Source: a virus (lineage: Duplodnaviria; Heunggongvirae; Uroviricota; Caudoviricetes). From it: a stretch of DNA of 42,479 nt. This document shows positions 10,353-41,471 of this stretch, one piece after another. The position numbers were made by a program, and so were the translations under genes. The notes beneath the pieces are model-generated. The model saw nothing but the letters and a program-made list of their open reading frames with translations. It was not told the origin of the DNA and did not search any database. Position 1 is the stretch's first letter. Each line of letters opens with the position of its first letter. Location of the stretch: IMG/VR virus record IMGVR_UViG_2939127364_000002; one strand, written 5' to 3'.

Positions 10353-10455
10353 TGACCATCTACATCACTGAGCTGATAACAGGGTTATCGTTACTAATGG
10401 TTCTTACTGTATATATTATTAAGTATATTCTTTATGCGAATAAAAAAACTAATTG
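10351..10455 (+). CDS. Possible 34-aa hydrophobic peptide
   Basis: MTIYITELITGLSLLMVLTVYIIKYILYANKKTN; AAAGGAGGA 6 nt upstream; ATG overlaps the helicase stop (TGATGA); speculative. Confidence 0.3.
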
Positions 10456-11045
10456 ATCACGATGAGCTTCTGTCAACATTATCATATGACTCAGAAACAG
10501 GAATATTTAAATGGCTAAAAACAAATTCAGTAGTAAGAGTAAAAGGTAGTATTGCTGGAGGTGTTAGTGGTGGTTATATATGCATTAGCATAAATAATGT
10601 TTTGTATTATGCGCATAGACTTGCTTGGTTCTATGTATACAAAAAATGGCCTCCTAAGTTTATTGATCATGTAAATGGGAACAGACTTGACAATAGGATT
10701 TCAAATCTAAGACTGGCAACAGAAGAGCAGAATGCAAGAAACATTGTAGGGAATAGATTAAACACATCCGGTGCAATTGGAGTGTCTTGGTATAAGCCAA
10801 CTGGCAGGTGGAAGTCTTATGTTGGTTATAAAAATAAGACAATATCGTTAGGGTATTTCGACAGCAAAGAAGATGCAGCATTCATAGCAGCACTAGCAAG
10901 AAAGAAACTATATGGAACTTATGCGAGTAAAGCACTTAATTGCGAGCATGAGCTTTTATCTCAATTTAATAATGATGAGGATAAACTTGCGGAATATCTT
11001 AAGGAAAAATCTAAAAGGACTCGAAAGCGTGTTAAAAACAGATAA
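10434..11045 (+). CDS. HNH endonuclease with AP2 DNA-binding domain (homing-endonuclease-like)
   Basis: ...YAHRLAWFYVYKKWPPKFIDHVNGNRLDNRISNLRLATEEQNARN... (HNH) and ...GVSWYKPTGRWKSYVGYKNKTISLGYF... (AP2-like); gene is visibly AT-rich. Confidence 0.75.
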   Translation: MRIKKLIDHDELLSTLSYDSETGIFKWLKTNSVVRVKGSIAGGVSGGYICISINNVLYYAHRLAWFYVYKKWPPKFIDHVNGNRLDNRISNLRLATEEQNARNIVGNRLNTSGAIGVSWYKPTGRWKSYVGYKNKTISLGYFDSKEDAAFIAALARKKLYGTYASKALNCEHELLSQFNNDEDKLAEYLKEKSKRTRKRVKNR

Positions 11046-12451: not shown

Positions 12452-12618
12452 TTGACCCAAATCGAAGTTACGAACAAGAAAGCGTCGAGCGGGCTTTAAC
12501 TTGCGCTAACTGCGGTCAGAAGCTGCATATGCTGGAAGTTCACGTGTGCTCCGATTGCTGCGCAGAGCTGATGAGCGATCCGAATAGCTCAATGTACGAG
12601 GAAGAAGACGATGAATGA
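12448..12618 (+). CDS. Hypothetical Cys-rich (zinc-ribbon-like) protein (56 aa)
   Basis: ...[20 protein letters not shown]...; GTG start overlapping the previous stop; acidic C-terminus. Confidence 0.4.
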
Positions 12619-13336
12619 GTTAATAAATGGCAACGCCATCAAAATGACAAGCATTGAAATCGCTGAGTTGGTAGAAAGCCGCCATAGCAATGTAAAAGTA
12701 TCCATAGATAGATTGGTGAAACGTGGCGTTATCAAGCCTCCTGCATTGCAGCACACTAACATAATCAATGATTTAGGTGTTATTACCGGGAAGCGTTATT
12801 TCTACGTCTTCGAGGGCGAACAAGGAAAGCGAGACAGCATTATTGTCGTCGCCCAATTGTCGCCAGAGTTCACCGCTCGCCTTGTTGACCGCTGGCGAGA
12901 GCTTGAAGAAACTGCGGTTAATATCCCCAAAACGCTACCAGAAGCGTTGCGCCTTGCTGCTGATCTTGCTGAGCAGAAAATGCAACTGGAAAACCAGCTC
13001 GCAATTGCCGCACCTAAAGTTGAGTTTGCCGATCGCGTTGGCGAGGCCAGCGGAATTTTGATTGGAAACTTTGCAAAGGTTGTTGGAATTGGTCCAAACA
13101 AACTGTTTGCGTGGATGCGCGATCACAAAATCCTTATTGCTTCAGGTTCCCGGCGCAATGTGCCAATGCAGGAATATATGGATCGCGGCTATTTCACAGT
13201 GAAAGAAACAGCGGTCAGTACAAATCACGGAATACAGATATCGTTCACTACAAAAATCACCGGACGTGGCCAACAGTGGCTGACCAGAAAGCTGCTCGAT
13301 AACGGAATGCTGAAAGTAACAGGGGAGGCTGCTTAA
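12611..13336 (+). CDS. Rha-family regulator with C-terminal KilAC antirepressor domain
   Basis: N-terminus ...MTSIEIAELVESRHSNVKVSIDRLVKRG... (Rha-like); C-terminal ...GNFAKVVGIGPNKLFAWMRDHKIL... (KilAC-like). Confidence 0.7.
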   Translation: MNELINGNAIKMTSIEIAELVESRHSNVKVSIDRLVKRGVIKPPALQHTNIINDLGVITGKRYFYVFEGEQGKRDSIIVVAQLSPEFTARLVDRWRELEETAVNIPKTLPEALRLAADLAEQKMQLENQLAIAAPKVEFADRVGEASGILIGNFAKVVGIGPNKLFAWMRDHKILIASGSRRNVPMQEYMDRGYFTVKETAVSTNHGIQISFTTKITGRGQQWLTRKLLDNGMLKVTGEAA

Positions 13337-13985: not shown

Positions 13986-14170
13986 ACGCCACAATTCAAA
14001 CGATACCAGAGCTTCTTATCCAGACACGAGGCAATCAGACCGAAGTGGCGAGGATGCTTTCCTGTGCAAGAGGAACAGTGCTCAAGTACAACCGAGACAG
14101 CAAAGGTGAGCGTCACGTAATAGTTAACGGCGTCCTGATGGTCAAACAGGGCAAGAGGGGAAGACCATGA
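13982..14170 (+). CDS. ninH: NinH-like protein
   Basis: ...GNQTEVARMLSCARGTVLKY... parallels lambda NinH ...GNQTEVARRLKCSRGTVRKY... Confidence 0.7.
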   Translation: MNATIQTIPELLIQTRGNQTEVARMLSCARGTVLKYNRDSKGERHVIVNGVLMVKQGKRGRP

Positions 14171-14790
14171 GACTCGAAAGCGTAGCTAAATTTCATTCGC
14201 CAAAAAGCCCGATGATGAGCGACTCACCACGGGCTACGGCTTCTGACTCTCTTTCCGGTACCGATGTGATGGCTGCTATGGGGATGGCGCAATCACAAGC
14301 AGGATTCGGAATGGCTGCATTCTGCGGTAAGCACGAACTCAGCCAGAACGACAAACAAAAGGCTATCAACTATCTGATGCAATTTGCACACAAGGTGTCG
14401 GGGAAATACCGTGGTGTGGCAAAGCTCGAAGGAAATACTAAGGCAAAGGTACTGCAAGTGCTCGCAACATTCGCTTATGCGGATTATTGCCGTAGTGCCG
14501 CGACGCCGGGTGCAAGATGCAGAGATTGCCACGGTACTGGCCGGGCCGTTGATATTACCAAAACAGAGCAGTGGGGGAGAGTTGTTGAGAAAGAATGCGG
14601 AAGATGCAAAGGTGTCGGCTATTCAAGAATGCCAGCAAGCGCCGCATATCGCGCTGTAACGATGCTAATCCCAAACCTTACCCAACCCACCTGGTCACGC
14701 ACTGTTAAGCCGCTGTATGACGCTCTGGTGGTGCAATGCCACAAGGAAGAGTCAATTGCAGACAACATTTTGAACGCGGTCACACGTTAG
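14167..14790 (+). CDS. Q: Late-gene antiterminator Q
   Basis: Zinc-finger segment CRDCHGTGRAVDI...CGRCKGVGY typical of Q family; last gene before the late promoter region. Confidence 0.8.
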   Translation: MRLESVAKFHSPKSPMMSDSPRATASDSLSGTDVMAAMGMAQSQAGFGMAAFCGKHELSQNDKQKAINYLMQFAHKVSGKYRGVAKLEGNTKAKVLQVLATFAYADYCRSAATPGARCRDCHGTGRAVDITKTEQWGRVVEKECGRCKGVGYSRMPASAAYRAVTMLIPNLTQPTWSRTVKPLYDALVVQCHKEESIADNILNAVTR

Positions 14791-15224: not shown

Positions 15225-15548
15225 ATGAAGATGCCAGAAAAAAATGACCTGTTAGCCGCCATTCTCGCGGCAAAGGAACAAGGCATCGGGGCAATCCTTG
15301 CGTTTGCAATGGCGTACCTTCGCGGCAGATATAATGGCGGTGCGTTTACAAAAACAGTAATCGACGCAACGATGTGCGCCATTATCGCCTGGTTCATTCG
15401 TGATCTTCTCGACCTCGCCGGACTAAGTAGCAATCTCGCTTATATAACGAGCGTGTTCATCGGCTACATCGGTACTGACTCGATTGGTTCGCTTATCAAA
15501 CGCTTCGCTGCTAAAAAAGCCGGAGTAGAAGATGGTGGAAATCAATAA
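15225..15548 (+). CDS. S: Holin, lambda S type, with dual-start motif
   Basis: [34 protein letters not shown]... nearly identical to lambda S; Met1-Lys2-Met3 start; upstream cccc-ttatt-gggg hairpin as in lambda. Confidence 0.9.
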
Positions 15549-16008
15549 TCAACGTAAGGCGTTCCTCGATATGCTGGCGTGGTCGGAGGGAACTGATAAC
15601 GGACGTCAGAAAACCAGAAATCATGGTTATGACGTCATTGTTGGCGGAGAGCTATTCACTGATTACTCCGATCACCCTCGCAAACTTGTCACGCTAAACC
15701 CCAAACTCAAATCAACAGCCGCCGGACGCTACCAGCTTCTTTCCCGTTGGTGGGATGCCTACCGCAAGCAGCTTGGCCTGAAAGACTTCTCTCCCAAAAG
15801 CCAGGACGCTGTGGCACTGCAGCAGATTAAAGAGCGTGGCGCTTTGCCGATGATTGATCGCGGTGATATCCGTCAGGCAATCGACCGTTGCAGCAATATT
15901 TGGGCTTCATTGCCCGGTGCTGGCTACGGTCAGTATGAACACAAGATCGATAGTCTGATTGCCAAATTCAAAGAAGCTGGCGGGGTGGTTAATGAAACTT
16001 CGCTATAA
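15532..16008 (+). CDS. R: Endolysin, lambda R-type lytic transglycosylase
   Basis: [39 protein letters not shown]... nearly identical to lambda R. Confidence 0.9.
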
Positions 16009-16453
16009 GCTGGTTATTTCTGCTTTCCTCCTGACTTTATTCGGTTCTCTCGTCTGGTCAGCTAACCACTACCACAATAAAGCCATTGAATACAAAAAAC
16101 AGCGCGACGAAAACGCTATGGCATTAGATTCGGCTATGGCGACGATCTCTGATATGCAGAAGCGTCAACGTGACGTAGCAGAACTCGATGCCAGATATAC
16201 AAAGGAGCTTGCTGATGCTAACGCGACTATCGAAAGTCTCCGTGCTGATGTTTCTGCTGGTCGTAAGCGCCTGCAAGTCGCCGCCACCTGTGCAAAGTCA
16301 ACGACCGGAGCCAGCGGCATGGGCGATGGAGAAAGCCCAGGACTTACAGCAGATGCTGAACTCAATTATTACCGTCTCCGAAGTGGAATCGACAAGATAA
16401 CCGCGCAGGTTAACTACCTGCAGGAATACATCAGGACGCAATGCCTGAAATAA
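15992..16453 (+). CDS. Rz: Rz i-spanin
   Basis: N-terminal transmembrane segment then ...ANHYHNKAIEYKKQRDENA...RQRDVAELDARYTKELADA... parallel to lambda Rz; start placed at ATG 15992. Confidence 0.8.
   Translation: MKLRYKLVISAFLLTLFGSLVWSANHYHNKAIEYKKQRDENAMALDSAMATISDMQKRQRDVAELDARYTKELADANATIESLRADVSAGRKRLQVAATCAKSTTGASGMGDGESPGLTADAELNYYRLRSGIDKITAQVNYLQEYIRTQCLK
16215..16400 (+). CDS. Rz1: Rz1 o-spanin lipoprotein, embedded in Rz in another frame
   Basis: MLTRLSKVSVLMFLLVVSAC with lipobox Cys, proline-rich mature part; AAGGAG 7 nt upstream of ATG. Confidence 0.7.
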   Translation: MLTRLSKVSVLMFLLVVSACKSPPPVQSQRPEPAAWAMEKAQDLQQMLNSIITVSEVESTR

Positions 16454-16495
16454 TTTTTTTGCAAATCACAAAGTCCATTTAATGAGCCTCGCGAT

Positions 16496-16518
16496 GCGGG
16501 GCTTTTTTATGTCCGCAG
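16496..16518 (+). terminator. Terminator-like hairpin after the lysis cassette
   Basis: Stem gcctcgc/gcggggc (one G-U pair) with 3-nt loop followed by TTTTTT. Confidence 0.45.
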
Positions 16519-16651
16519 TAAACGCGCATCTCACGCGCATATTAACGAGAGCCTTTCAGTAAGCGAGCCTGAGAAATGCCGTTATAGGTGGCGACCTCTC
16601 TCGGGCGGCTTTTCTGTGAGACAGGCTCACTTTCTAAAAGGTAAAGACGCT

Positions 16652-17170
16652 ATGAATCATCAATTGGCTAATCTCGATTTCCGGGACATGGTGGTTGTTT
16701 CTGGTGATCGCGTGATCACAACCTCCCGCAAGGTAGCAGCTTACTTCGACAAGCAGCATCACCACATCATTCAGAAAATCGAAAAGCTAGACTGTTCGGA
16801 TGAATTTCTAACCAGCAACTTTTCGCGGGTTACCTATGAACACAAGGGTAATCAGTATGTTGAATATGAAATTTCCAAAGACGGCGCGATGTACATCATC
16901 ATGTCGTTTACCGGCAAAAAAGCTGCCGCCATCAAAGAGGCGTTTATCAAAGCATTTAATTGGATGCGTGACAGGCTGATGGAGATGGCTCACTCATACC
17001 AAAGAGAGCACAACGAGTTAATGCTGGAGTTCATGAAGGAAAAGGATGTTGCCAGTATGTCAGGACGCTTGCTGAACCGCTGGGGCAGGATCAAAAAACC
17101 GCAACTCATAGCAAGAATCGAAAGGCTTGAGCAGCAGGCGCAAATATCGATCCCCGGACTGCCAAAGTGA
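16652..17170 (+). CDS. Rha-family phage regulatory protein
   Basis: ...DFRDMVVVSGDRVITTSRKVAAYFDKQHHHIIQKIEKL... Rha-like; start placed at ATG 16652. Confidence 0.65.
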   Translation: MNHQLANLDFRDMVVVSGDRVITTSRKVAAYFDKQHHHIIQKIEKLDCSDEFLTSNFSRVTYEHKGNQYVEYEISKDGAMYIIMSFTGKKAAAIKEAFIKAFNWMRDRLMEMAHSYQREHNELMLEFMKEKDVASMSGRLLNRWGRIKKPQLIARIERLEQQAQISIPGLPK

Positions 17171-17583
17171 CCATTCCAAAGCCCATCTACTGGTGGGCTT
17201 GATAATGAAACCGTGATTTACATCCCTCACAATCCAGGTATGTAAAAGCTGGATCATGCGAGAACGGATTTAACTAAATCTGTGCGCCACCAGTTAACGG
17301 CAGTACCACGAAACAACCCAAGCCAGTAAGTGGGGAAATAACACTGGCAGCCACTGAAAGATGAACCTCCTGCCTTATGGCAAAAAAGATTCTTTGTGGT
17401 GGCGGACTGATGGAAAGACATCGGTTATTGCAGAGGCCATTCAATGAGTGGTCTCGACAATGGCTTATACCCTACACGGGATAACTTAACTGATATCCCT
17501 TTTAACGGATAAACGGAGCCAATAATGGCAGAGAATGTCGGCATTATGGCAGTGAAATTTGGATAAATCGGAGATTAGTACAT

Positions 17584-17934
17584 ATGCCGCCACGAACCCC
17601 AAAAGCCTGCCGTGTTCGCGGTTGCCGCCATACCACAACTGACCCGTCAGGCTATTGCGAAAGCCACAAAAGTGAAGGCTGGAAGCAATACAAGCCAGGA
17701 CAATCCCGTCATCAGCGCGGTTATGGTTCGAAGTGGGACAGTATCCGCGCGGGTGTCCTGAAGCGTGACAAAGGCCTGTGTCAGTTATGTCTGCGTGCTG
17801 GTGTGGTGCGTGAGGCGAAAACCGTTGACCACATCATCCCTAAAGCGCATGGCGGCACTGATGCAGACTGCAATCTGCAGAGCCTGTGCTGGCCGTGTCA
17901 TAAGGCGAAGACGGCCCGTGAACGGCTAAAGTGA
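17584..17934 (+). CDS. HNH endonuclease, packaging-associated
   Basis: Cys-rich N-terminus and ...VDHIIPKAHGGTDADCNLQSLCWPCHKAKT... HNH motif; immediately upstream of the terminase genes. Confidence 0.85.
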   Translation: MPPRTPKACRVRGCRHTTTDPSGYCESHKSEGWKQYKPGQSRHQRGYGSKWDSIRAGVLKRDKGLCQLCLRAGVVREAKTVDHIIPKAHGGTDADCNLQSLCWPCHKAKTARERLK

Positions 17935-17958
17935 TAATAATTCTCAACTGCATGAGGG

Positions 17959-18009
17959 GAGGGGCGGGTCAAATCCCTGCAGCCTGACATCTTCCGGACT
18001 GCCCGCCCC
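17959..18009. other. Candidate cos region: G/C-rich inverted repeat
   Basis: GGGGCGGG (17961..17968) and CCCGCCCC (18002..18009) between the HNH gene and the terminase small subunit. Confidence 0.3.
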
Positions 18010-18059
18010 ATCGTTTTTTTATACCCGCGAAAAATGAAATTTAACCAGGAGTGCCGCAT

Positions 18060-18554
18060 ATGGCTGGAACGGCGGGGCGTTCCGGGCGTCGCCCCAAGCC
18101 AACGGCGCGCAAGGCGCTGGCCGGAAACCCCGGCAAGCGAGCCCTGAACAAAGATGAACCTGTTTTTACGCCCATCAAAGGTGTTGAGCCACCGGAGTGG
18201 TTCGCTGAAGAAGATCTCCCTCTCGCTACAATCATGTGGCAACTGACAACTAAAGAACTCTGCGGTCAGGGCCTGCTGTGCGTGACTGACCTCGCGGTGC
18301 TTGAGCGGTGGTGCGTGGCCTATGAGTTCTGGCGACGTGCCGTGAAAAATATTGCCAGACAGGGCAACACCATCACCGGTGCAATGGGCGGCATGGTCAA
18401 AAATCCGGAGCTGACCGCCAAGAAAGAACAGGAGTCCGAGATGAGCAGCACGGGGGCAATGCTCGGACTCGACCCCAGCAGCCGCCAGCGTCTGATTGGC
18501 CTGGCGGGGAAGAAGAAAGCCACTAACCCGTTTCTGAAAATCATCGAATCATGA
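18060..18554 (+). CDS. Terminase small subunit (P27-like)
   Basis: [34 protein letters not shown]... typical P27-family N-terminus; AGGAG RBS; ATGA overlap with the large subunit. Confidence 0.8.
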
Positions 18555-40077: not shown

Positions 40078-41235
40078 CTATGACACCTTCTCATCAAGCC
40101 AATCCGCCCACCACTGCATCATTTCTCTGCGCTTATCGAGATACTGAGCATGGTTGTAAATTCCACGTACAGATCCGCCGTTGGCATGTGCCAGTTGCAC
40201 TTCAATGGCGTCGGCAGGCCATTCGTGCTCGTTCATAATCGTGCTGAATTCATGCCTGAATCCGTGACCGCTTTCCAGACCTTCATAGCCGATTTGTTTG
40301 ATCACAAGCAATACCGCGTTCTCGCAGATTGGCTTCTTCTTATCGTTGCGCCCGGCAAAAACAAACTCTGAGACTGGTTTGGTGATTGAGCTTAGCGTAG
40401 TGAGAAGTTCAACCACCTGGTCTGACATCGGGACCACATGAATTTTGCGTCCCTTCATCACACTGGCGTCGATGGTGATAATCCTGTTTTCAAAATCGAC
40501 GTTCTTCCATAGCATGGAACGAAGCTCTTTCGTTCTTAGGGCTGTATAACGTAAAACTTTTGTCGCAATGAGCGATACGATACTTCCTGAAAATGTTGCC
40601 AGTGCTTTGTTGAATGCAGGGATCTGGTCTGCTGGAAGGAACGGGAAGTTCTTCTTGCGGTATCCCTTCATGGCGTCAGCAAGGTCAGGTGCCGGGTTAT
40701 ATTTAGCCCTACCAGTGACAATAGCGTAACGGAAAACCTCGCCGCATCTTCTGCGGGCTTTGTTGGCTCGCTCCATTGCACCGCGATCTTCAAATCTGCG
40801 GATTACTTCCAGCAGTTGCATCGGCTCAATATCCTGAATTTCAAGGCCGCCGATGATGGGTAAAATGTCGTCATCAAACATTTTTGCAAGTTCATTTGCA
40901 TAGCCTACTGACCAGACTTGCTTCTTGTGCTCGTACCATTCCTTGTAAATGGCGCTAAAGGAATTGTTGTTAGACGAAGTCTTTTTCGCTTTTACCGGAT
41001 CGATACCAACCGAGATGTCTTTCCTCGCGGTCCATGCTTTATCCCTTGCCTCCTGCAAAGTCATAAGCGGATATTTTCCGACGGTCAGGATTTTCTCCTT
41101 ACCGTCAATCTTGTAGCGAAGCTGCCATACCTTTTTCCCGGATACAGGAACATAAAGGTACAGGCCATTACCATCGAGAAGGCGGTATGGTTTTTCTTTC
41201 GGCTTTGCTGCTTCAATCTGCTTAACGGTGAGCAT
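40078..41235 (-). CDS. intS: Tyrosine integrase, IntS-like
   Basis: MLTVKQIEAAKPKEKPYRLLDGNGLYLYV... recognised as the CPS-53/KplE1 integrase; start placed at ATG 41235 rather than track start 41271; adjacent to argW. Confidence 0.9.
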   Translation of the reverse strand: MLTVKQIEAAKPKEKPYRLLDGNGLYLYVPVSGKKVWQLRYKIDGKEKILTVGKYPLMTLQEARDKAWTARKDISVGIDPVKAKKTSSNNNSFSAIYKEWYEHKKQVWSVGYANELAKMFDDDILPIIGGLEIQDIEPMQLLEVIRRFEDRGAMERANKARRRCGEVFRYAIVTGRAKYNPAPDLADAMKGYRKKNFPFLPADQIPAFNKALATFSGSIVSLIATKVLRYTALRTKELRSMLWKNVDFENRIITIDASVMKGRKIHVVPMSDQVVELLTTLSSITKPVSEFVFAGRNDKKKPICENAVLLVIKQIGYEGLESGHGFRHEFSTIMNEHEWPADAIEVQLAHANGGSVRGIYNHAQYLDKRREMMQWWADWLDEKVS

Positions 41236-41281
41236 GGGTAAAAATCCGGTGGGTAAAATTATTTTATCCACTTTTTACCCG
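41236..41281. promoter_or_regulatory. Cluster of GGGTAAAA / TTTTACCC 8-mers upstream of intS (candidate recombination-protein binding sites)
   Basis: GGGTAAAA at 41236..41243 and 41251..41258, inverted TTTTACCC at 41273..41280. Confidence 0.35.
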
Positions 41282-41396: not shown

Positions 41397-41471
41397 TGGT
41401 GTCCCCTGCAGGAATCGAACCTGCAATTAGCCCTTAGGAGGGGCTCGTTATATCCATTTAACTAAGAGGAC
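41397..41471 (-). tRNA. argW: tRNA-Arg (anticodon CCU)
   Basis: 75-nt cloverleaf GTCCTCTTAGTTAAATGGATATAACGAGCCCCTCCTAAGGGCTAATTGCAGGTTCGATTCCTGCAGGGGACACCA with anticodon CCT and encoded CCA. Confidence 0.9.
41411..41426. repeat. att core copy within the argW T-arm
   Basis: Exact 16-bp match to 221..236. Confidence 0.6.

Follow-up and report, generated by a model that had tools for sequence, protein, structure and literature searches.

A rha gene in a probable exchangeable accessory-gene slot between the lysis and packaging modules of a lambdoid Escherichia coli prophage

The DNA considered here (the whole 42,479-nt stretch, hereafter referred to as the window) represents a lambdoid prophage of E. 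coli, in which an ORF at 16652–17170 lies between the lysis and packaging modules. This ORF very probably represents an ordinary rha gene in a standard, exchangeable slot of the late operon, with cargo genes replaced by recombination in flanking arms, a conserved non-coding scaffold behind the cargo, and expression by late read-through. Hundreds of genomes already carry an annotation of this gene, under this family name and at this position, in agreement with the classical rha loci of phi80 and P22. For HK97-like and P22-like lambdoid phages, the interval between Rz and the packaging genes is, on this reading, a standard accessory slot rather than a seamless junction.

Identity and position of the gene at 16652–17170

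The features delimiting the slot, and the lysis and packaging genes around it, are listed below.

14167–14790: Q-type antiterminator.
15225–16453: holin, endolysin and Rz.
15959–16453, plus strand: Rz (i-spanin), the last lysis gene and upstream boundary of the slot (Pfam Phage_lysis, 1e-38; PHROG 13, Rz-like spanin, 3.8e-69).
16454–16651, plus strand: left cassette arm, consisting of the terminator and a leader of about 150 nt extending to the start codon, defined by homology across cargo types.
16484–16510, plus strand: intrinsic terminator, GAGCCTCGC-GAT-GCGGGGCTT followed by T6 (terminator scan; folding).
16652–17170, plus strand: rha, identified with family models; Rha domain at about 16718–16969, ORF11CD3 domain at about 16994–17155.
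17584–17934, plus strand: HNH endonuclease (HK97 gp74-like), which opens the packaging module and bounds the slot on its downstream side (Pfam HNH, 5.3e-15; PHROG 144; annotation in ET5 and HK106).
18051–18554: small terminase, P27-family.

An Rz1-like ORF is nested within Rz at 16188–16400, and the small terminase gene is followed by genes for the large terminase, portal, protease and HK97-type capsid. The terminator in the left arm is a strong one, with a 9-bp stem containing six G-C pairs and a T6 tail (−14.1 kcal/mol, z −2.8). Annotators have placed a rho-independent terminator at the homologous sites of HK106 and phi80, the wording for phi80 being “putative rightward transcription terminator”. 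A preliminary description of this DNA had placed a Rha-family gene, preceded by a terminator-like hairpin, between Rz and the HNH and terminase genes; its account of the gene order and of the hairpin agrees with the features listed above, and its family assignment was borne out by Pfam, TIGR02681 and PHROG 518 alike.

The ORF encodes 172 amino acids if read from the ATG at 16652, and 184 from an in-frame GTG at 16616, the latter being the length given in the annotation of phi80 rha. Annotators have differed in their choice of start codon, with PGAP selecting the ATG and the annotators of phi80 the GTG equivalent to that at 16616. In P22, the Shine-Dalgarno sequence GAAGG lies 7 nt ahead of the corresponding ATG, which speaks for the ATG. 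The 172-aa protein matched Pfam Phage_pRha (PF09669; residues 23–106, E 1e-23, 84.1 bits for a cutoff of 29.9), Pfam ORF11CD3 (PF10549; residues 115–168, E 8.8e-24, 83.9 bits for a cutoff of 25), TIGR02681 (76 bits, cutoff 45.95) and PHROG 518, “Rha-like transcriptional regulator” (5.5e-80). A search of a large database recovered 334 homologs. Among the matches listed, the full-length homologs had the PF09669+PF10549 architecture and came from Enterobacterales, Shewanella and Gilliamella, and the named homologs were Rha family regulators. The exact DNA allele (at least 99% identity) was found in 209 of 5,426 complete E. coli genomes, in which it is always annotated as “Rha family transcriptional regulator”. 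The scores above both the Pfam and the TIGR02681 cutoffs, the homology to rha of phi80 and P22, and the location behind Rz/Rz1 and a terminator all assign the gene to the Rha family. Judged on its sequence, 16652–17170 is a genuine, intact and ordinary member of that family.

The protein was also modeled with AF2 (pLDDT 84.6, pTM 0.70). The model has a compact N-terminal domain of helices and a β-hairpin (residues 15–83) and a C-terminal part made up of two long helices (residues 89–128 and 138–163), with ORF11CD3 forming a long helical hairpin. A sequence search of solved structures gave a best E value of only 0.78, and only weak matches were obtained with Foldseek against the PDB. The N-terminal domain of Rha would bind DNA, and the C-terminal helical hairpin would probably serve for self-association, or for the binding of a partner.

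The second Rha-type gene that the preliminary description had recorded in the nin region was confirmed at 12611–13336. Its product contains an ANT/KilAC domain (PF03374, 1.4e-32) and a Rha-like N-terminus, the match of which lies below the Pfam cutoff (25.1 versus 29.9 bits). The label “Rha/KilAC” is nevertheless fair, because a protein sharing 50% identity (7e-65) with the product has a Rha match that clears this cutoff. The Rha/ANT protein of the nin region and the Rha/ORF11CD3 protein encoded after Rz both belong to the “Bro network”, in which DNA-binding proteins of phages are shuffled (PMC10111431). The pair is not a duplication; the two proteins display no significant similarity beyond a patch of 29 residues.

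In terms of gene order, rha canonically follows Rz in this slot, where phi80 and P22 also have it, and the site is not that of an unusual insertion. Phi80 is the phage in which rha and the Rha phenotype were defined, the primary paper on the gene being that of Henthorn and Friedman (1995). In phi80, rha (PHI80_62, JX871397 43739–44293, with the GenBank note “DNA synthesis inhibition in IHF- hosts”) follows Rz/Rz1 and an intrinsic terminator, in the same order as in the window, and over the roughly 200 nt that comprise the 3′ end of Rz, the terminator and the leader, a single mismatch separates it from the window. At the protein level, identity between the Rha of phi80 and that of the window is 38% (E 6e-35), with homology in the N-domain, and the two genes represent different alleles; the C-terminus of the phi80 protein aligns poorly with the ORF11CD3 domain of the window protein. 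The two phages also differ downstream, with other accessory genes and then cos after rha in phi80, whereas the window has a scaffold of the P22 type.

In P22, the order is gene 15 (Rz), rha (orf201), ORF25, pid, ORF80, ORF59C and gene 3, with rha in the same slot as in the window. The P22 and window proteins are 45% identical (E 1e-53), reaching about 85% in the C-terminal ORF11CD3 part, and the two genes share DNA over 17019–17160, whereas their N-terminal Rha domains are different alleles. P22 also carries the same conserved core downstream, but beyond it come pid, a moron of 642 bp, and the whole of ORF80 (DUF2560), in place of which the window has an empty pid site and 13 DUF2560 codons joined to an HK97-type HNH/terminase module.

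Closer relatives were found in two different settings. The Rha protein of Escherichia phage Gally (Lederbergvirus) is 100% identical to that of the window, although Gally differs from the window in being a P22-like podovirus and in having additional DNA within its downstream block. A prophage of E. coli ET5 (Rha WP_024193020) contains the whole of 16400–17650 at 98.9% identity and has the same order as the window: Rz, Rha, HNH and P27-family TerS.

Cargo of the slot and its flanking arms

The occupancy of the slot was surveyed in 120 IMG/VR loci retrieved by an exact match to 46 nt of conserved sequence downstream of rha (hereafter referred to as the marker), 107 of which had Rz no more than 4 kb upstream of the marker. 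All the counts given out of 107 below refer to this sample, which is not de-replicated and is conditioned on the marker. Cargo classes, assigned by clustering, Pfam and tblastn, were as follows.

Rha-type, 47/107 (44%): 22 of the P22 type, 21 of the window type, three of a third type and one Rha+ANT.
KilA-N, 28/107: some with ORF11CD3.
T5orf172/GIY-YIG, 6/107.
Tad2-like (Thoeris anti-defence 2 domain), 5/107.
101-aa membrane protein, 5/107.
Small ORFs, 4/107.
Nothing, 12/107: for example, phage L.

The slot was thus occupied in 95 of the 107 loci (89%). Distances between the Rz stop codon and the marker (183–1,348 bp, n=107) clustered in discrete classes, the value for the window being 925 bp. 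Several named phages and protein families provide examples of alternative cargo with the same arms and in the same orientation: hkbK of HK620 (KilA-N), gp73 of HK97 (KilA-N + P63C), gp64 of HK106 (GIY-YIG/T5orf172) and the Tad2-like “Gp49 family” proteins. These proteins differ from the Rha of the window in the family of their N-terminal part or of the whole protein.

The preliminary description had held that, in lambda-type phages, the packaging genes usually come directly after the lysis genes, a view contradicted by phi80, by P22 and by the occupied loci. It had described the gene as inserted, which can be read as a recent, lineage-specific insertion breaking a normally contiguous lysis-to-packaging junction, and had proposed a comparative search for phages without it; the 12 empty loci, phage L included, are what such a search finds. 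These empty loci would be expected after a recent insertion, but rha is present at the same site in phi80 and P22, most of the surveyed loci are occupied, the flanking arms are conserved across all cargo, and the allele is carried by 209 E. coli genomes. We therefore consider an odd, recent insertion to be extremely improbable, its refutation coming from phi80, P22 and the slot survey. At the comparative level, rha is dispensable, as relatives have other genes, or none, in the slot; the gene would be non-essential in the window phage.

In comparisons of loci differing in cargo, homology stops at 16656–16661, one to three codons past the ATG, and is picked up again across cargo types at 17165–17172, at the stop codon. 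Therefore, the cargo is swapped between a left and a right arm. The left arm precedes P22-type Rha, GIY-YIG and KilA-N cargo alike. In the exchange that we favor, lambdoid phages would swap the cargo of the slot by recombination in these two conserved arms, the left one comprising terminator, leader and ATG, and the right one a hairpin beginning at the stop codon.

Exchange has also occurred within genes. The DNA shared by the window-type and P22-type rha over 17019–17160 shows that the N-terminal, predicted DNA-binding domain has been replaced in place, while the ORF11CD3 domain stayed constant. Several KilA-N cargo proteins share this ORF11CD3 C-domain, with …IPGLP as its end, and display the same exchange of the N-domain.

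The conserved block downstream of rha

The interval between the stop codon of rha and the HNH gene extends over 413 bp (17171–17583). It contains segments differing in their distribution among phages.

17171–17213, plus strand: segment A, the right cassette arm, with the hairpin AGCCCATCT-ACTG-GTGGGCTT at 17179–17200; found in HK97, HK620, HK106 and L.
17214–17287, plus strand: segment B, a non-coding spacer; present in HK620 and HK106, absent from HK97 and L.
17288–17483, plus strand: near-invariant non-coding core, common to P22-like and HK97-like phages.
17484–17524, plus strand: empty second accessory-gene site (the pid site of P22), then the Shine-Dalgarno sequence GGAG at 17515–17518.
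17525–17566, plus strand: 13-codon DUF2560 remnant (HK620 hkbM, P22 ORF80), starting ATGGCAGAG after GGAG.

The longest plus-strand ORF of the interval, at 17377–17484, has 35 codons. It was rejected as a gene on account of start-codon loss and premature stops in relatives: its ATG is replaced by AAG or GTG in nine of 127 relatives, and premature stops are present in many others. This ORF is annotated as the beginning of “orf118” in ST64T and L. Minus-strand ORFs of 55 to 65 aa were judged unconvincing by eye, having neither a start codon nor a Shine-Dalgarno sequence. Substitutions in the interval had no obvious three-base periodicity, and the PGAP annotation of the ET5 prophage, 98.9% identical, has no gene at the site of 17171–17583. 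The preliminary description had reported about 400 bp without a convincing ORF behind the gene, and this statement stands. From its reading frames and their decay in relatives, the interval is a conserved non-coding scaffold, rather than missed coding sequence.

The core is near-invariant in P22, L, HK97, HK106, HK620, Sf101 and about 100 IMG/VR loci, and both the podoviruses resembling P22 and the siphoviruses resembling HK97 have retained it, irrespective of their cargo. The core contains a plus-sense hairpin at 17432–17466 and a terminator-like hairpin on the minus strand at 17366–17387; at the site homologous to the latter, phage L has an annotated terminator, also on the minus strand. The homology to P22 is broken by pid between positions 313 and 341 of the block, corresponding to 17483–17511 of the window. 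The empty spacing of the pid site seen in the window was also present in 84 of the loci fetched. The gp66 of Sf6 and the extra DNA of Gally sit at a junction near the pid site.

The tail of the block reaches 17534, where the homology to P22-like phages stops, and the DUF2560 frame closes after 13 codons; a longer DUF2560 remnant is present in HK97 and HK106. This truncated start of DUF2560 is therefore the junction between an HK97-type HNH/terminase module and a segment in common with the late operons of P22-like phages.

We also considered the block at the RNA level. The plus strand of the 413-nt sequence folded at −132 kcal/mol, versus −105 ± 6 for shuffled sequences (z −4.5), and the minus strand had a z of −3.2. 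RNAalifold analysis of 111 sequences yielded no compensatory double changes, owing to the scant variation among them, and the changes that could be counted were one-sided ones preserving the pairing of a single hairpin. For this hairpin, at 17432–17466, all nine of the nine distinct transitions recorded in 105 sequences keep the pairing (G-U to A-U or G-C, C-G to U-G, etc.), and the few pair-breaking changes are transversions, with the exception of one double change. Two pairs of this hairpin are G-U, corresponding to A-C mismatches on the opposite strand, and its predicted energy is −15.0 kcal/mol in the plus sense, versus −9.4 kcal/mol in the minus version. These features are suggestive, albeit weakly, of a plus-sense RNA structure at 17432–17466. 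Searches against Rfam by E value over 16380–18100, covering the leader and the interval, gave only chance-level matches (best E 0.22), and the only hit at the gathering score in the whole window was a tRNA at 41400–41471.

The retention of the core (about 17288–17483, within the structured block 17171–17534) could reflect a function, as opposed to its being an inert leftover. It might be a cis element of the late mRNA, with a role in processing, stability or translational coupling, or else a platform for exchange, its homology driving swaps in both the rha-type and the pid-type slots. We regard a function of either kind as unlikely.

Expression and possible functions of rha

No sigma-70-like promoter was found on either strand between 15900 and 18200, where shuffled sequence yields about 2.2, in a crude consensus scan blind to weak and non-sigma-70 promoters. 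Because no promoter was predicted, we infer late, Q-dependent read-through: rha would have no promoter of its own and would be transcribed late by Q-modified RNA polymerase, from PR′ through the terminator at 16484–16510.

Expression as an autonomous unit was considered as an alternative. A moron, as reportedly defined by Juhala and coworkers in 2000, is an autonomous unit of promoter, gene and terminator found in only some relatives. As a moron, rha would be expressed in the prophage from a weak promoter in the leader, to the benefit of the lysogen through regulation of host genes or phage exclusion, as for pid of P22. The gene does have a terminator upstream and a hairpin downstream, its presence is polymorphic (12 of the 107 loci, in a marker-conditioned sample that is not de-replicated, are empty) and its G+C content (46%) is lower than that of the window (50%) and of the packaging genes (55–57%). 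Furthermore, pid occupies the adjoining slot of P22 and BTP1. Located in P22 between orf25 and orf80, it encodes an 86-aa product that derepresses the host dgo operon, and it is transcribed divergently and independently of the late operon, related phages having no insert or another one there (PMC3573128); its expression in BTP1 lysogens is high (PMC7067206). However, the consensus scan detected no promoter for rha; rha has the orientation of the late operon, unlike the divergent pid; the hairpin behind rha, at 17179–17200, is stable (−15.1 kcal/mol, z −3.95) but is followed by no T-run, and the terminator scan did not pick it up; and rha of P22 is treated, in a secondary source, as a gene of the late operon, detrimental to lytic growth without IHF (PMC4936722). 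An autonomous moron is, therefore, distinctly improbable, and late read-through remains our preferred reading.

By analogy with rha of phi80 and P22, overexpression of the gene would be harmful to phage growth in hosts lacking IHF. The Rha phenotype, in which the gene product prevents the phage from growing in IHF-defective hosts, is known from phi80 and P22 only. The window Rha is 38–45% identical to the two studied Rha proteins, and the IHF-related phenotype may not carry over. The exact IHF consensus WATCAANNNNTTR had no match in 16380–17650; two sites with one mismatch, about the chance rate, were located within rha, and neither was convincing as an IHF site.

Two other proposals concern the target of the protein. 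Rha could be an antirepressor or cross-talk factor, made at a late stage of infection or induction and inactivating the repressors of resident heteroimmune prophages or satellites in the manner of Ant-type proteins, with a protein, rather than DNA, as its target. This reading overlaps with that of an ordinary late-operon rha as regards expression, and differs from it in the target. Related PHROGs are labeled as anti-repressor (phrog_20738 at 6.1e-39, phrog_373 and phrog_63), the Bro network is shared with ANT, AntA and P22_AR domains (PMC10111431), and one relative (L097) has a Rha+ANT protein in the same slot. On the other hand, no ANT/KilAC, AntA or P22_AR domain was detected in the 16652–17170 protein at an E value of 0.1 or better, the PHROG labels are annotations, not tests, and the window already has a Rha/ANT protein in the nin region. 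We consider an antirepressor quite unlikely.

Finally, the slot could be an anti-defence hot spot, with Rha acting against host immunity or triggering it. Other phages have a Tad2-like protein (E 2.7e-25) in the same slot, and the slot region of phage Louie contains a gene annotated as anti-CRISPR. We nevertheless find such a role very improbable: no PADLOC model was matched (best E 0.0049), the literature searched yielded no experimental link between Rha and immunity, and 70% of the cargo genes encode DNA-binding proteins of the Bro network, rather than members of known anti-defence families.

Left arm of rha and exchange of domains

The left arm of rha, the gene in the post-Rz slot (the exchangeable accessory-gene site between Rz and the packaging genes), extends from the terminator (16484-16510) through the leader to the ATG at 16652. 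Window positions 16440-16651, from the 3' end of Rz through the terminator and the leader, were nearly identical to phi80 (JX871397; L130:3060-3260), with 1 mismatch in about 200 nt. Despite this near-identity of the leader DNA, the Rha proteins of phi80 and the window were only 38% identical. The leader also contains a long imperfect inverted repeat (approximately 16561-16630) spanning the alternative GTG start at 16616.

Domains have been shuffled in situ (comparison loci L126, L084 and L109), with one and the same ORF11CD3 C-terminal domain partnered at the N-terminus by either Rha or KilA-N. This shared domain ends in the residues IPGLP, and comparison of the window-type and P22-type Rha alleles over window 17019-17160 placed a joint near 17019 at the DNA level. 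The Rha/ANT protein encoded in the nin region (12611-13336) was 50% identical (7e-65) to the Rha+ANT protein occupying the post-Rz slot of a relative (L097), so one kind of gene moves between the nin region and the slot.

Other cargo was also found at this site. A Tad2-like (Thoeris anti-defence 2) protein, named "Gp49 family" by PGAP, lies in the slot of L106, L015, L039, L058 and L034, and phage Louie (PQ850616) carries an anti-CRISPR-annotated gene within the same region. The post-Rz slot may also serve as a hot spot for counter-defence genes.

Non-coding core and the joint with the packaging module

The core downstream of rha (17288-17483, inside 17171-17534) is non-coding and near-invariant, is common to P22-like podoviruses and HK97-like siphoviruses, and is kept regardless of the neighbouring cargo. 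As plus-strand RNA, the ORF-free block containing it (17171-17583) folded with a z score of -4.5. In the hairpin at 17432-17466, pairing was kept by all nine distinct transitions (9/9), and its G-U pairs are plus-strand-specific.

Further downstream, at 17525-17566, the DUF2560 gene (hkbM of HK620, ORF80 of P22) is reduced to a 13-codon remnant with its SD retained; the remnants in HK97 and HK106 are longer. The remnant in the window marks the recombination joint between a segment that P22-like late operons also carry and the HK97-type HNH and terminase module.

Other features of the window

10434-11045, plus strand: 203-aa ORF with HNH_3 (8e-16) and AP2 (1.6e-6) domains
16188-16400, plus strand: ORF inside Rz, in the +1 frame
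40078-41271, minus strand: 397-aa ORF adjoining the tRNA gene
41400-41471, minus strand: tRNA gene (63.4 bits in Rfam), close to the window's right end

The 203-aa ORF, flanked by a DnaB-type helicase on one side and nin-region genes on the other, looks like a free-standing homing endonuclease. The ORF inside Rz, in which inspection by eye picked out a signal of lipoprotein type (LLVVSAC) and a tail rich in proline, presumably encodes the Rz1 o-spanin. The region of the tRNA gene and the 397-aa ORF is probably the prophage integration site.
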